From Ignavibacteriales bacterium UBA6490 (GTDB lineage Bacteria; Bacteroidota; Ignavibacteria; Ignavibacteriales; Ignavibacteriaceae), in NCBI GenBank assembly GCA_002435365.1, contig DJMM01000008.1, positions 1 through 46,372 of the forward strand: 46,372 nt of DNA, written 5' to 3'. The notes under the pieces are model-generated. The model ran no database searches, had not been told where the DNA came from, and worked only from the letters and a program-made list of their open reading frames with translations. Position 1 is the first letter of the stretch. The number at the start of each line of letters is the position of its first letter. Both the position numbers and the translations under genes were made by a program. Shown here piece by piece: positions 28,776 to 32,131 of this stretch.

Positions 28776-30176
28776 TCATTGCCAACTTATAAAGTAAGGC
28801 GGAATAAGCAGCAATAAACCTATAATAAGAAAAATTATTTCAAGCGGAAGAATCCATCTTGCCCATTTCTCCCATGGAATATCAGCCAAAGTTAAAACAC
28901 CCATGGTAACAGCGGAAGTAGGAATGATCATATTACTGAAACCATCTCCGAACTGAAAGGCAAGAACAGCAGTCTGTCTGGTTACATTTACTATATCGGA
29001 CAGCGGTGCCATAATGGGCATTGTAAGAACTGCCTGTCCGCTTCCCGATGGAACAAAAAAGTTAATTAAGGTCTGAACCAGGAACATTGCCTGAGAAGAT
29101 ACTATCGGGTGCATTGCGGATATGGGCTGTGAGAGGCTATAAAGCATGGTATCAATTATTTTTCCGTCTTGGGATAAGATCAGGATGCCCCTGGCAAGAG
29201 CAATTACAAGTGCCGTACCAACCAGGTCTTTTGCTCCGGAAATGAATGAATCGGTAATTTCCTTTATTGATAACCTGCCCACTATTCCCACCAGAATACC
29301 AAGTACAAGAAAAACTGCGGAAATCTCTTCTATATACCATCCGAAAGAAAGGACCCCGTAAATAAGTACCAGTATGCCTAAAACAAAAGTTATTAAAACT
29401 AATTTATGATTGGTTGAAATTCCTTTGTGATTTTCAATGTCTGATAGATTAATTTCTTTTCTTTTTTGCTTATCCTGCTCATATGTTAAACTTAACTCAG
29501 GGTTCCTTTTCACTTTGTTAGCATACCTTACAACAAAGAATATTGTCACCGAAGTAATAAACAACCAGCAAATAATTCTATAGACAATTCCGGAAAACAA
29601 TGGCAGCTGCGCAATATTTTGAGCTATTCCCACAGTGAAAGGATTGAGAAATGCTCCGGCAAAACCAGCACCGGCGGCAACGAACGGTATTGCAACACCG
29701 GTTATGGTGTCATAGCCCAGAATTAAGGCCATCGGTACAAAAACCAGGATGAAGGGAATAACTTCCTCGCTCATACCAAATATTGCCCCCGCCAGAGAAA
29801 ACAATATCATCAGTACCGGAATGAGCAAGACTCTTAAAACCCTGGATTTTCCATGTGCTTTAGCAATAGACATAATAGTTGAATCAACTGCTGCAGTTTT
29901 TTTAAATACTCCAAATGCACCGCCAATCAAAAGCACAAAACCAATTATTAACGCAGCATCCACAAATCCTTTTGCAGGTGACATTAAAATATCCGCAATT
30001 CCCTGCGGCTTACTGTCGATAAACCTGAAAGAATCTCCGTCGACCATTTCCTTTCCATTTACAACTATCCTCTCATACTCACCGCCGGGTATAATCCAGG
30101 TTAGAATAGCTGTCACGAACAATAAACTGAACAACAGGAAGTAGGTATTTGGAGATTTTATTTTTCCAAGTTTCAT
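28776..30176 (-). CDS. YfcC / DcuC-like ('C4-dicarboxylate anaerobic carrier' family) membrane transporter
   Basis: 466-aa polytopic membrane protein. N-terminus KSPNTYFLLFSLLFVTAILTWIIPGGEYER and an overall pattern typical of YfcC-type putative basic amino acid/peptide carriers. Its ATG overlaps the cyanophycinase TGA (ATGA, 30173-30176). Confidence 0.75.
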   Translation of the reverse strand: MKLGKIKSPNTYFLLFSLLFVTAILTWIIPGGEYERIVVNGKEMVDGDSFRFIDSKPQGIADILMSPAKGFVDAALIIGFVLLIGGAFGVFKKTAAVDSTIMSIAKAHGKSRVLRVLLIPVLMILFSLAGAIFGMSEEVIPFILVFVPMALILGYDTITGVAIPFVAAGAGFAGAFLNPFTVGIAQNIAQLPLFSGIVYRIICWLFITSVTIFFVVRYANKVKRNPELSLTYEQDKQKRKEINLSDIENHKGISTNHKLVLITFVLGILVLIYGVLSFGWYIEEISAVFLVLGILVGIVGRLSIKEITDSFISGAKDLVGTALVIALARGILILSQDGKIIDTMLYSLSQPISAMHPIVSSQAMFLVQTLINFFVPSGSGQAVLTMPIMAPLSDIVNVTRQTAVLAFQFGDGFSNMIIPTSAVTMGVLTLADIPWEKWARWILPLEIIFLIIGLLLLIPPYFISWQ

Positions 30177-31027
30177 TCTATTACTGAATGTTTGTTAATA
30201 TCATATTTATCCCCTGAAAGCAGAATATCCATCTGCAGATTGCGGACACCAAATTTACCCTCGCCATTCTTCTTTATATCTGAAGTATTAAGCGGATCAA
30301 AGATTACAACCTGATTTTCACCCAGTACCTCAAAGGTGTTATCCGGTTTGATTATTATGCAGGTAGATTCATCAATACCAATCCCGGTTAACTCGGGATT
30401 TTCAAGAACCTTCGAAATAAGCCGGTTAAGCCTTTTTCTCTTTATAAAATGCTGATCTATTATTGCATTTTCAATAAAACCAAATCCTTCAGTATGCTCA
30501 ACATTTCCAGCTTCTATTGTTTTAAAGATATTTGCGGAGTCCCTGTTTTTTAGTTCATTACCGGTTATCATAACCCTGCTCATTACTGCTGCTCCGGCGC
30601 TGGTACCGCTTATTAAACCGCCACCCCGGTATATTTTTTTTATGGTATTAAGAAGTTTGGTGCCTAACAGGTCACGGGTCAGAAAAGCCTGGTCTCCGCC
30701 ACCAAAATAGATTCCTGTTACACCGTCCAGTTTTTTAACAATGGAATCCAGATCGGCCTGATCCCGGGTACAATAAAGATAACTCACATTTGTGCACCCT
30801 GCGCTCATAAACTCATTTACACAATTTTCGCCCGATTCTACCGGATCAGAACTTGCATTGGGAATCACCAGAATTTTTGCATCAGTTCCGCCAGCCAGCT
30901 CAATAATCTTTTGTGTTACATAATCAGGTCTGTTTCCGCCTCCAATTATTACTAAATGACCTTTTTCTTGTGCAGACAGTGAGGTGATGAGGAATATCAG
31001 GAATGCTGCCGTTATAATTTTTTTCAT
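30173..31027 (-). CDS. Cyanophycinase (S51 peptidase) with N-terminal signal peptide (extracellular/periplasmic CphE-like)
   Basis: HLVIIGGG, IYFGGGDQAFL, the catalytic-Ser context ISGTSAGAAVMS, and IDQHFIKRKRLNRLISKV all match the cyanophycinase pattern. N-terminus MKKIITAAFLIFLITSLSAQ. Confidence 0.85.
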   Translation of the reverse strand: MKKIITAAFLIFLITSLSAQEKGHLVIIGGGNRPDYVTQKIIELAGGTDAKILVIPNASSDPVESGENCVNEFMSAGCTNVSYLYCTRDQADLDSIVKKLDGVTGIYFGGGDQAFLTRDLLGTKLLNTIKKIYRGGGLISGTSAGAAVMSRVMITGNELKNRDSANIFKTIEAGNVEHTEGFGFIENAIIDQHFIKRKRLNRLISKVLENPELTGIGIDESTCIIIKPDNTFEVLGENQVVIFDPLNTSDIKKNGEGKFGVRNLQMDILLSGDKYDINKHSVIE

Positions 31028-31036
31028 TGTATTATT

Positions 31037-32131
31037 TTAGTTTAATTTCAATAATTCCAAAGCTATCTCAGCTGTTTTATTAAGATCCTCAAGTAATATA
31101 AATTCATCATTTGAATGAGGATTTTGTGCTCCGATCCCCAAATTGATTGCCTGGATTCCCATACTATTAAGGGAGTTGGCATCACTTCCGCTTAAAGACG
31201 ATACGGGCTTTGGGTTTAGGCCCACTTTTGTTAATATTTTGTATGTTTCCCTGAATAAATCATCTTCCTCAGTTATTTGGTAAGGCATAAAATCCCAGAT
31301 AGATATGAATTCTGAGGTTGCACCGGGTTTCTTTGCTTCGGTTTCAAAAATCGTTTTTATGTTCTCAATAATATTCAGAACTTTATCAGTGTTAAAAGAT
31401 CTTACCTCACCGCTAATATCTACAAGATCAGGAATGACGTTAACGGCAGAACCACCTTTTATTGTTCCTAAATTAACAGTGGTTTCGGGATCAATTTTGC
31501 CCTGTTTTATCTGACTGATAGCTTTTGCAGCTATTTCGATTGCGTTAATACCTTTTTCCGGGGCAAGTGCCGAATGTGTTGCTTTACCTTTAACTTTGAC
31601 TTCGAACCCCATCGATCCGCAAGCACTATTTATGAATGTTCCGGGTCTGAATGCACTATCGAAGACGAATCCTTTTTTGATTTTACCATTGATCTGAAGA
31701 TTTTTCGAACCCATTAAAGTCGTTTCCTCACAGGTAGTAAACGCAATAGTAAAATCTTTATGATTGATTCTTTCCTTGTGAAGTTTTTCAATTGTGAACA
31801 GCAGTACTGCTATTCCGGCACGATTATCTACACCCAGGACAGTATCTCCCCCTGATGTTATCCTATCTGATTTAATTACAGGCTTAACATCCCTGGTTGT
31901 TCTTGCGGTATCCATATGAGAGAGTAGCAAAATATCGCCGCCGTCCCCTTTGCTACAAATTATATTACCAGAATTACTCTGCGATCTGGCGGCTGAATTA
32001 TCTTCTACTACATTAAGAGAGTATTCAGAAAGGAATTCTCTAATAAAATCAGAGAGTGGTTTTTCCTTACCTGATAATGCTTCTATTTTAGCCGTTTTTA
32101 TAAATAACTCAATCAGCCGATCATTATTCAT
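31037..32131 (-). CDS. M20-family metallopeptidase (PepT-like di/tripeptidase subgroup)
   Basis: Metal-ligand contexts LLSHMDT, LGVDNRAG and TTCEETTLMGS. 364 aa with no signal peptide. It lies 9 nt upstream of the cyanophycinase gene. Confidence 0.8.
   Translation of the reverse strand: MNNDRLIELFIKTAKIEALSGKEKPLSDFIREFLSEYSLNVVEDNSAARSQSNSGNIICSKGDGGDILLLSHMDTARTTRDVKPVIKSDRITSGGDTVLGVDNRAGIAVLLFTIEKLHKERINHKDFTIAFTTCEETTLMGSKNLQINGKIKKGFVFDSAFRPGTFINSACGSMGFEVKVKGKATHSALAPEKGINAIEIAAKAISQIKQGKIDPETTVNLGTIKGGSAVNVIPDLVDISGEVRSFNTDKVLNIIENIKTIFETEAKKPGATSEFISIWDFMPYQITEEDDLFRETYKILTKVGLNPKPVSSLSGSDANSLNSMGIQAINLGIGAQNPHSNDEFILLEDLNKTAEIALELLKLN

Follow-up and report, generated by a model that had tools for sequence, protein, structure and literature searches.

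The 46,372-nucleotide (nt) stretch analyzed here, referred to below as the window, comes from the genome of Ignavibacteriales bacterium UBA6490, a member of the family Ignavibacteriaceae (GenBank assembly GCA_002435365.1, contig DJMM01000008.1, positions 1 to 46,372). The assembly totals 2.63 Mb in 123 contigs and is 76% complete. The subject of this work is a group of three adjacent genes on the minus strand of the window, which belong to a candidate system for the use of cyanophycin. This polymer, in which nitrogen and carbon are stored, is widespread, and its consumers and their enzymes are only partly known. Protein families were identified by Pfam and NCBIfam profile searches against the curated cutoffs.

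The first gene of the trio (positions 31037 to 32131) encodes a 364-amino-acid (aa) metallopeptidase of family M20 with the Pfam domains Peptidase_M20 and M20_dimer. It is a PepT-like, apparently cytoplasmic protein and a candidate hydrolase for imported beta-Asp-Arg/Lys. The second (30173 to 31027) encodes a 284-aa serine peptidase of family S51, which matches the cyanophycinase model TIGR02069, has a signal-like N terminus, and is predicted to be exported, probably to the periplasm. The third (28776 to 30176) encodes a 466-aa inner membrane carrier of the YfcC/DcuC family (Pfam domain DcuC), a candidate importer of beta-Asp-Arg or arginine. The M20 stop codon lies 9 nt before the ATG of the S51 gene. 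The TGA of the latter overlaps the ATG of the carrier gene as ATGA, and the two are predicted to be translationally coupled. This arrangement was already described in the first-pass annotation, which was made from the window alone and treated the trio as a unit. The unit is real and strongly conserved, but it is much larger than was thought, with about 12 genes that include TonB-dependent, type IX secretion system (T9SS), RpiR, and M14 components. The full locus spans ~15 kb, from 17433 to 32178 with its operators (genes, 17433 to 32131), and its intergenic gaps are short or negative.

The S51 protein

The S51 protein scores 183.8 bits against the curated cyanophycinase equivalog TIGR02069 (cutoff, 126.6) and 31.5 bits against the PepE (dipeptidase E) model NF003642, for which the cutoff is 156. 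Its best solved relatives are the cyanophycinases 7UQV (E = 7e-41) and 3EN0. As previously noted, it contains the cyanophycinase motifs GGGDQ, GTSAGA, and DQHFIKRKRLNRL behind a signal-like N terminus, MKKIITAAFLIFLITSLSAQ. Aligned with 7UQV and 3EN0, it matches them at the Gln in GGDQ, at the Ser in GTSAGA, and over the pattern D-Q-H-x3-R-x-R-x2-R (segment DQHFIKRKRLNR). According to the structure of CphB, the residues critical for cyanophycinase activity are Gln101, Asp172, Gln173, Arg178, Arg180, and Arg183, in addition to Ser132 (PMC3235067). The window protein has the Ser residue in GxSAG and the equivalents of Gln101, Asp172, Gln173/His174, Arg178, Arg180, and Arg183. The critical residues are preserved across ~100 S51 proteins linked to M20, and the motifs are common to three sets, namely, the M20-adjacent S51 proteins, CphB proteins whose genes adjoin cphA, and a longer S51 form that has a T9SS sorting domain.

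A quick maximum-likelihood tree was built from 82 S51 proteins. Its eight PepE sequences separate with 100% support on a branch of ~7 changes per column, and the window protein falls among the cyanophycinases, where the M20-linked S51 proteins form a near-exclusive group that includes it. Dipeptidase E, which the first-pass annotation had raised as the identity that would undermine its proposal, was thus rejected on both the low profile score and the long separate branch. By its sequence, the S51 protein is a cyanophycinase.

A simple hydrophobicity check of the N termini found signal-like leaders in 36 of 37 M20-adjacent S51 proteins and in all 4 long S51 proteins with a T9SS domain, compared with 3 of 32 CphB proteins adjoining cphA and 0 of 8 PepE proteins. 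Judged from these leaders, export is a conserved trait of the M20-linked group. In the window protein, Pfam searches found no T9SS C-terminal sorting domain. Because it has a Sec-type leader and lacks such a domain, it is more likely to be periplasmic than truly extracellular like CphE. The earlier description of the pathway as CphE-like is supported as to the type and export of the enzyme, whose location would probably differ.

Many relatives encode a second S51 protein of ~670 to 760 aa with a T9SS tail (Por_Secre_tail), as at L094:12428-14452 and L096:12183-14189 and in loci L159 and L160. Among 18 high-quality genomes that carry the M20 ortholog or the locus, this long form is present in 11, mostly ~11 kb downstream of the M20 gene, and it is the probable truly extracellular cyanophycinase. 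The window assembly has a single S51 gene, and the long secreted form was not found in it; the gap in which relatives hold that gene, between the PorV/PorQ and M14 genes, is 129 bp in the window. Since its genome is without the long form, this organism may rely on soluble fragments or on the enzymes of its neighbors.

The M20 peptidase

The M20 protein has the catalytic and dimerization domains of peptidase family M20. Alignments show conservation of the five metal ligands (H72, D102, E136, D158, and H339), the general-base Glu (E135), and D74. Its N terminus, MNNDRLIELF, has no hydrophobic leader, in agreement with the first-pass annotation. Against the PepT-like model TIGR01883 it scores 238.9 bits, under the cutoff of 274.25. 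It is thus assigned to a group that neighbors the TIGR01883 family and is not a member by that model. The predicted structure (pLDDT, 95.5) has a TM-score of 0.87 to 3GB0.

The closest solved structures are those of uncharacterized PepT-like M20 proteins from Bacillus cereus (3GB0) and Staphylococcus aureus (3RZA), neither of which has an assigned substrate. These proteins and peptidase T share 30 to 32% identity, the two-domain architecture, and the metal ligands with the window protein. Unlike them, the S51-linked M20 group has its own conserved residues flanking the metal site, namely, R77, N103, R104, R162, Q336, and D342, which cluster near the metal ligands as judged from their position in the sequence only. 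No homology to IadA, IaaA, or CphZ was detected, with profile matches to M20, M28, and M42 models only. Any beta-Asp-Arg activity of this protein would therefore be a functional likeness to those three families and not membership in them.

M20 enzymes are also known to hydrolyze beta-alanyl dipeptides (carnosine) and N-succinyl compounds (DapE), which are chemically similar to beta-Asp-Arg. The fifth-ranked structural neighbor, with a TM-score of 0.81, is the M20 protein PahZ2 from Sphingomonas sp. strain KT-1 (PDB 7LJH), which acts downstream of a depolymerase and cleaves oligo-aspartate at alpha or beta aspartyl amide bonds (PMC13017698). It is only 20% identical to the window protein and is periplasmic, and its substrate consists of synthetic poly(Asp) oligomers, so that the comparison is one of analogy, not orthology. 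In the listed papers that contain both terms, no link between cyanophycin and M20 peptidases was apparent from titles or abstracts.

The YfcC carrier

The carrier scores 354.9 bits against the Pfam domain DcuC (cutoff, 23.1) and 405.6 bits against the equivalog NF008611, under its cutoff of 500. In line with the NCBIfam name, we take YfcC to belong to the basic amino acid antiporter family (Transporter Classification [TC] 2.A.118). ArcE, a protein named in that family, exchanges Arg, Orn, Cit, and Lys (PMC5300872). A literature search found no paper naming both cyanophycinase and YfcC.

Conservation of the locus

The order M20, S51, YfcC, T9a (sometimes followed by T9b), RpiR, and TonB-dependent receptor, all on one strand, is found in ~77 species-level genomes (T9a and T9b are T9SS-secreted proteins described below). 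These genomes belong to Ignavibacteria, Melioribacteraceae, Marinisomatota, and Lentisphaeria. MAGs (metagenome-assembled genomes) that bear the labels Ignavibacterium album and Melioribacter roseus (L052 and L076) are among the carriers. Wherever the examined DNA extends downstream of M20, the next gene is S51. Among loci with sufficient sequence, YfcC directly follows S51 with a single exception, L087, in which rpiR lies between them. In longer stretches from four genomes, the receptor gene is followed by genes for a ~915-aa protein, a PorV/PorQ barrel, an enolase superfamily protein, and an M14 protein, and some of these stretches also encode a 670-aa S51 protein with Por_Secre_tail downstream of the receptor.

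Relatives of the M20 gene come almost exclusively from MAGs labeled Ignavibacteriaceae, Ignavibacteriales, or Melioribacteraceae; a few are from Neomarinimicrobiota and Lentisphaeria, and one is from a MAG labeled Deltaproteobacteria. The relative with 46% identity to the window protein is found in the arrangement M20-S51-T9a-receptor-921-aa protein-PorV-like, and one with 43% identity is in M20-S51-YfcC-T9a-RpiR. A second contig with a 43% identical protein and one with a 39% identical protein each end after M20-S51. At 42% identity, S51 directly follows M20, and at 40% identity the order is M20-S51-YfcC-RpiR-receptor. One context of a 35% identical protein contains an aminotransferase and an Na/Ala symporter, with no S51 gene nearby. 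Four representatives (P0130, P0131, P0144, and P0154) are on contigs too short for gene context and are outside these counts.

In other families of the class, the gene set appears in shuffled orders, for example, 914-aa protein, PorV-like, long S51, M20, and M14. Its persistence through such reshuffling suggests that these genes constitute one functional module. Paralogous modules are found elsewhere in the same genomes (L167, L168, and L169). In one of these, L169 (G218:C1:197800-217700), the order is M20-M14-(476-aa protein)-RpiR-T9a-T9a, without S51; another has the 914-aa protein, PorV-like, long S51, M20, M14 order given above. The recurring set of M20, M14, RpiR, and T9a has the look of a kit that can be reused.

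In L104:1-10705, a Bacteroidia-style variant of the locus, genes for the following proteins lie in a row: SusC, SusD, two Cleaved_Adhesin proteins, M20, S51 (here a lipoprotein), YfcC, and an Asparaginase_2 lipoprotein. Through this variant, the M20-S51-YfcC core is tied both to an IaaA-type enzyme and to a classic SusC/SusD system.

Scavenging or storage of cyanophycin

The cyanophycin synthetase gene cphA was detected above the cutoff in 50 of 401 sampled Bacteroidota genomes. No cphA was seen in any of the 18 locus-bearing genomes, nor in the 8 genomes sampled from the family to which the window belongs or in five further locus-bearing genomes, one of which is a complete 3.9-Mb chromosome. 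Within the window, no cphA, iadA, or iaaA gene was found, as first reported. The search of the remaining genome called for by the first-pass annotation likewise gave no match above the cutoff for cphA, iaaA, or iadA (models TIGR02068, PF01112, and TIGR01975), although in a 76% complete assembly this does not establish genome-wide absence. With the lineage lacking cphA and the locus encoding an exported enzyme together with TonB and T9SS components, it is quite probable that the locus scavenges cyanophycin made by others. The scavenging interpretation of the first-pass annotation is thus well supported.

Its other premise, that an isoaspartyl dipeptidase is missing, turned out to be weak. IadA was not found in any of the 18 locus-bearing genomes; an Asparaginase_2 (IaaA-type) gene, unlinked to the locus, is present in 17 of them, and locus L104 encodes M20 and an IaaA-type protein together. 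The idea that the lineage has no isoaspartyl peptidase was accordingly rejected. Given these counts and the incompleteness of the assembly, the absence of IaaA from the window genome may be an artifact of missing sequence. Of the 12 IaaA-type proteins of locus-bearing genomes with readable N termini, 11 have signal or lipoprotein peptides, unlike the Asparaginase_2 copy adjoining cphA, which is leaderless.

The dipeptidases of Bacteroidota and Firmicutes have been said to "remain undiscovered" (PMC10206079). Of 20 diverse Bacteroidota cphA loci (L139 to L158), 14 have CphB adjacent to cphA, 10 have an adjacent IaaA-type gene, and none has an adjacent M20 ortholog. M20 was thus rejected as a general partner of cphA-cphB in this phylum and, with no M20 in these loci, it is not the general answer to the missing dipeptidase of cphA-bearing Bacteroidota. 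The frequency of IaaA-type genes next to cphA-cphB exceeds the expectation from a genome-wide co-occurrence of 22% (PMC10206079), in a sample that is small and not randomly drawn.

Other genes of the locus

T9a (27600 to 28727, minus strand) is a T9SS-secreted protein that is syntenic in most loci. Its predicted fold (pLDDT, 89.7) consists of a beta-supersandwich followed by a type A C-terminal sorting domain. The nearest solved folds are the noncatalytic N-terminal domains of glycoside phosphorylases and hydrolases, mutarotase-like proteins, and the periplasmic domain of YidC. T9a is a candidate surface binding module for the substrate. T9b (26210 to 27583, minus strand) is a longer paralog of T9a that also has a T9SS C-terminal sorting domain and is found in only some loci. 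The N-terminal domain shared by the two proteins has no family in Pfam. In the ESM Atlas, this domain occurs as an accessory of T9SS-secreted S8 peptidases (subtilisins) from Ignavibacteriota, WOR-3, and Zixiibacteriota.

This accessory role bears on the nature of the substrate, which might be another aspartate-rich or isopeptide-linked polymer, or peptides in general, with M20 and M14 acting as generic finishers of a TonB/T9SS protein utilization locus. The M20-M14 module without S51 (L169), the absence of an extracellular cyanophycinase from the window genome, and the uncharacterized status of the PepT-like proteins that are the nearest M20 structures would all be in accord with such a substrate. 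It is nevertheless unlikely, because the critical cyanophycinase residues are all retained in the ~100 M20-linked S51 proteins, the S51 score exceeds a curated equivalog cutoff, and the related locus L104 adds an IaaA-type enzyme, the classic partner in cyanophycin breakdown.

Next to T9b is the gene for a regulator of the RpiR/MurR family, a probable repressor (25282 to 26151, minus strand), in which the HTH_6 and SIS domains were both identified. Its stop codon is overlapped by 4 nt by the start of the gene for the TonB-dependent outer membrane receptor (22829 to 25285, minus strand), which consists of CarboxypepD_reg, Plug, and barrel domains and has no SusD partner. A 914-aa secreted protein (20061 to 22805, minus strand) is the conserved partner of the receptor. 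Pfam searches gave two subthreshold hits for it and nothing else, and there is a weak match to a T9SS sorting tail. It is followed by an outer membrane barrel of the PorV/PorQ family (19050 to 20042, minus strand), an assignment made from its synteny and its score of 222.6 bits against NF033709 (cutoff, 90).

The last gene (17433 to 18920, minus strand) encodes a 495-aa zinc carboxypeptidase-like protein of family M14 with a signal peptide, which many but not all of the loci include. It scores 19 to 20 bits, below the 25-bit cutoff, against the AstE_AspA model that covers CphZ-type enzymes. A search for CphZ in this genome and its relatives returned only marginal matches of 20 to 25 bits to generic M14 proteins, and CphZ was dropped as a candidate. 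The M14 protein is a rival candidate for removal of Arg or for cleavage of beta-Asp-Arg outside the cytoplasm.

Should such cleavage take place, the pathway would be completed in the periplasm: the exported M14 protein, an IaaA-type enzyme, or both would split beta-Asp-Arg there, and YfcC would import free arginine. M20 would then have another cytoplasmic job, for example, the breakdown of (beta-Asp-Arg)2 or other small peptides, or the hydrolysis of amino acids with an N-acyl or N-succinyl group. The M14 protein does have a signal peptide and recurs in the locus, the IaaA-type proteins are mostly exported (the one in L104 is an in-locus lipoprotein), and an OSBS/NSAR-type gene (see below) accompanies M14 in several loci. 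The range of ArcE, which includes free Arg, Orn, Cit, and Lys, fits as well, as does the existence of CphZ, an M14-like beta-Asp-Arg hydrolase (PMC9974463). However, M14 is missing from several otherwise complete loci (L160, L164, and L165), whereas S51 after M20 is constant, and its AstE_AspA score is under the cutoff. Moreover, were free amino acids the only compounds to enter the cell, a dedicated cytoplasmic peptidase would be left without a function despite the leading place of its gene in the operon. Periplasmic completion is thus possible but rather doubtful.

Beyond the M14 gene, the window contains a saccharopine dehydrogenase-like gene (16119 to 17258) and, past it, an enolase superfamily gene (14847 to 16016, plus strand), so that the former lies between the latter and M14. 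The enolase superfamily protein is of the o-succinylbenzoate synthase (OSBS)/N-succinylamino acid racemase (NSAR) type, with 335.9 bits against TIGR01928. Genes of this type travel with M14 in loci L093, L094, L095, and L166. N-succinyl-Arg resembles beta-Asp-Arg, and the OSBS/NSAR-type enzyme may therefore act on a related compound.

The same neighborhood could be read as a system for salvage of peptidoglycan peptides, with an MpaA-like M14, an epimerase-like enolase superfamily protein, M20 as a dipeptidase, and a MurR-like sensor. The adjacency of M14 and the enolase superfamily gene in those four loci, the matches of the regulator to MurR family models, and a 21-bit match of M14 to MpaA point in that direction. 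We judge this version very unlikely: the MpaA match is far under the cutoff of 157, the enolase superfamily protein scores 97.5 bits as an L-Ala-D/L-Glu epimerase (cutoff, 500) versus 335.9 as OSBS/NSAR, there are no N-acetylmuramic acid or amidase genes in the locus, and the S51 protein is clearly of the cyanophycinase type.

Operators and regulation

Two operator-like palindromes precede the M20 gene. The proximal one (32133 to 32148), TGTAATATATATTACA, is a perfect 16-bp palindrome located 1 nt before the M20 ATG. The distal one (32163 to 32178), which has a single mismatch to the consensus TGTAAY-N4-RTTACA, is ~47 nt before the ATG and 30 bp upstream of the proximal site. Sites of this consensus are found at about -17 and -47 upstream of M20 in most of 70 orthologous loci (L012 to L088). 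The perfect palindrome occurs once in the whole assembly, at 32133 to 32148, and paired sites 20 to 40 bp apart are found in this locus only. The first-pass annotation had considered co-regulation of a canonical dipeptidase located elsewhere; in the 76% complete assembly, and counting perfect matches only, no other gene carries a copy of the operator.

The palindromes are probably the binding sites of the RpiR family regulator of the same locus, a link that we infer from their position and conservation. The consensus resembles HexR-type operators. An RpiR/SIS regulator (25282 to 26151 in the window) is a constant member of what appears to be a peptide locus.

Proposed pathway

No other gene accompanies those of the exported cyanophycinase and the carrier as constantly as the M20 gene. 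As IadA was not found and the IaaA-type proteins are unlinked to the locus and mostly exported, M20 is the only evident cytoplasmic candidate for cleavage of beta-Asp-Arg in the locus-bearing genomes. Genomic context and chemistry make this activity of M20 the best single hypothesis, plausible but unproven, with a chance that falls somewhat short of even.

At the level of the whole system, we propose that the trio is the promoter-proximal core of a conserved ~15-kb cyanophycin-scavenging locus of Ignavibacteria in which M20 is the cytoplasmic finisher, a reading to which we assign a probability of about 0.5. In this pathway, T9a, T9b, and the 914-aa protein, displayed by the T9SS, would work with the PorV/PorQ barrel and the TonB receptor to capture soluble cyanophycin fragments and pass them to the periplasm. 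Relatives would additionally deploy the long S51 protein with its T9SS sorting domain. The translationally coupled YfcC carrier would import the dipeptide into the cytoplasm, where the PepT-like M20 di-metal hydrolase would convert it to Asp and Arg. The RpiR family protein would repress the operon by binding at the two TGTAAY-N4-RTTACA palindromes, which cover the promoter and the M20 start. The substrates given here for M20, YfcC, the receptor, and the surface proteins are those that we infer.

Several observations speak against this proposal. RpiR/SIS regulators normally sense sugar phosphates and are a poor fit to a peptide locus. The window genome encodes no extracellular cyanophycinase, a difficulty for any attack on insoluble granules. 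ArcE, the characterized carrier named in the basic amino acid antiporter family, moves free amino acids, not dipeptides. The exported M14 protein recurs in the locus, and CphZ, the newest cyanophycin dipeptidase known, is M14-like. Most locus-bearing genomes have the IaaA-type gene mentioned above, and a periplasmic enzyme of this type could make M20 unnecessary for the dipeptide step. M20 is not simply a stand-in for IaaA, because L104 carries both. Finally, M20 does not adjoin cphA-cphB in any of the 20 Bacteroidota loci, and since the M20-M14 module of L169 occurs without S51, this type of M20 can serve other substrates.

If the cytoplasmic cleavage proposed here does take place, the S51-linked PepT-like M20 group would be a fourth cyanophycin dipeptide (beta-Asp-Arg/Lys) hydrolase family, unrelated to IadA, IaaA, and CphZ. 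Working in the cytoplasm, it would come after an exported cyanophycinase and a YfcC-type importer of dipeptides, within a new RpiR-repressed TonB/T9SS locus shared by the four lineages listed above. This combined claim is put forward tentatively and is more likely to fail than to hold in full.

Comparison with known systems

A "cyanophycin utilization locus" was reportedly described in strain L21-Spi-D4 by Ben Hania et al. in 2017. Scavenging clusters surveyed by Sharon et al. in 2023 combine a cyanophycinase, IadA or IaaA, and a transporter (PMC10206079). The window locus resembles them in that it pairs a transporter with an exported cyanophycinase and that no cphA was detected in its genome. 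It differs in lacking IadA/IaaA, in the PepT-like M20 that is always immediately upstream of S51, and in the addition of the TonB receptor, the 914-aa protein, PorV/PorQ, T9a, M14, and RpiR control. The combination of cyanophycinase with IadA/IaaA and no cphA, which characterizes the surveyed clusters, is thus absent from the window locus; it is found in L104.

The S51 protein shares with CphB and CphE the fold, the catalytic Ser, and the pocket of Gln, Asp, Gln-His, and three Arg residues. In contrast to CphB, it has a signal peptide and no linkage to cphA. S51 enzymes with Por tails have been described in Salinivirga and Cyclonatronum (PMC6243061), similar to the second S51 protein with a T9SS (Por) sorting tail in relatives of the window organism. 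The window S51 protein differs from these long forms in having no sorting domain and in its probable periplasmic location.

CphZ/AotO, an M14-like protein of the AstE/AspA family (PMC9974463), is the closest parallel to the role proposed for M20, that of a dedicated metal-dependent beta-Asp-Arg/Lys hydrolase whose gene neighbors cyanophycin genes and one for a transporter of basic amino acids. The window candidate has the unrelated di-metal aminoacylase/peptidase fold of M20, and its role is putative. The M14 protein of the locus is a carboxypeptidase of the PF00246 type, not of the AstE/AspA type.

In its general plan, the locus is similar to the SusC/SusD loci, with a TonB receptor, surface partners, a periplasmic depolymerase, an inner membrane carrier, a cytoplasmic finisher, and a local regulator. 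Unlike those loci, it has no SusD, its surface parts are T9SS cargo, and its proposed target is a polyamide, not a glycan; L104 does use SusC/SusD. The TonB/T9SS/RpiR architecture and its operators appear to be undescribed in the literature searched.

Implications

Should beta-dipeptides prove to be substrates of M20 or YfcC, the two proteins would be useful for making or sensing dipeptides derived from cyanophycin. The claim for M20 is a narrow one, in that it would be a scavenger's enzyme and not the general missing enzyme for mobilization of stored cyanophycin. Within these limits, it is a concrete, widely conserved, and easily cloned candidate for the dipeptide hydrolase. The group that includes the locus-bearing organisms is commonly found in sediments, groundwater, and wastewater. 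For these organisms, the locus would represent a complete uptake architecture, from receptor and surface binders to periplasmic depolymerase, carrier, regulator, and operator, directed at a polymer that is not a carbohydrate.

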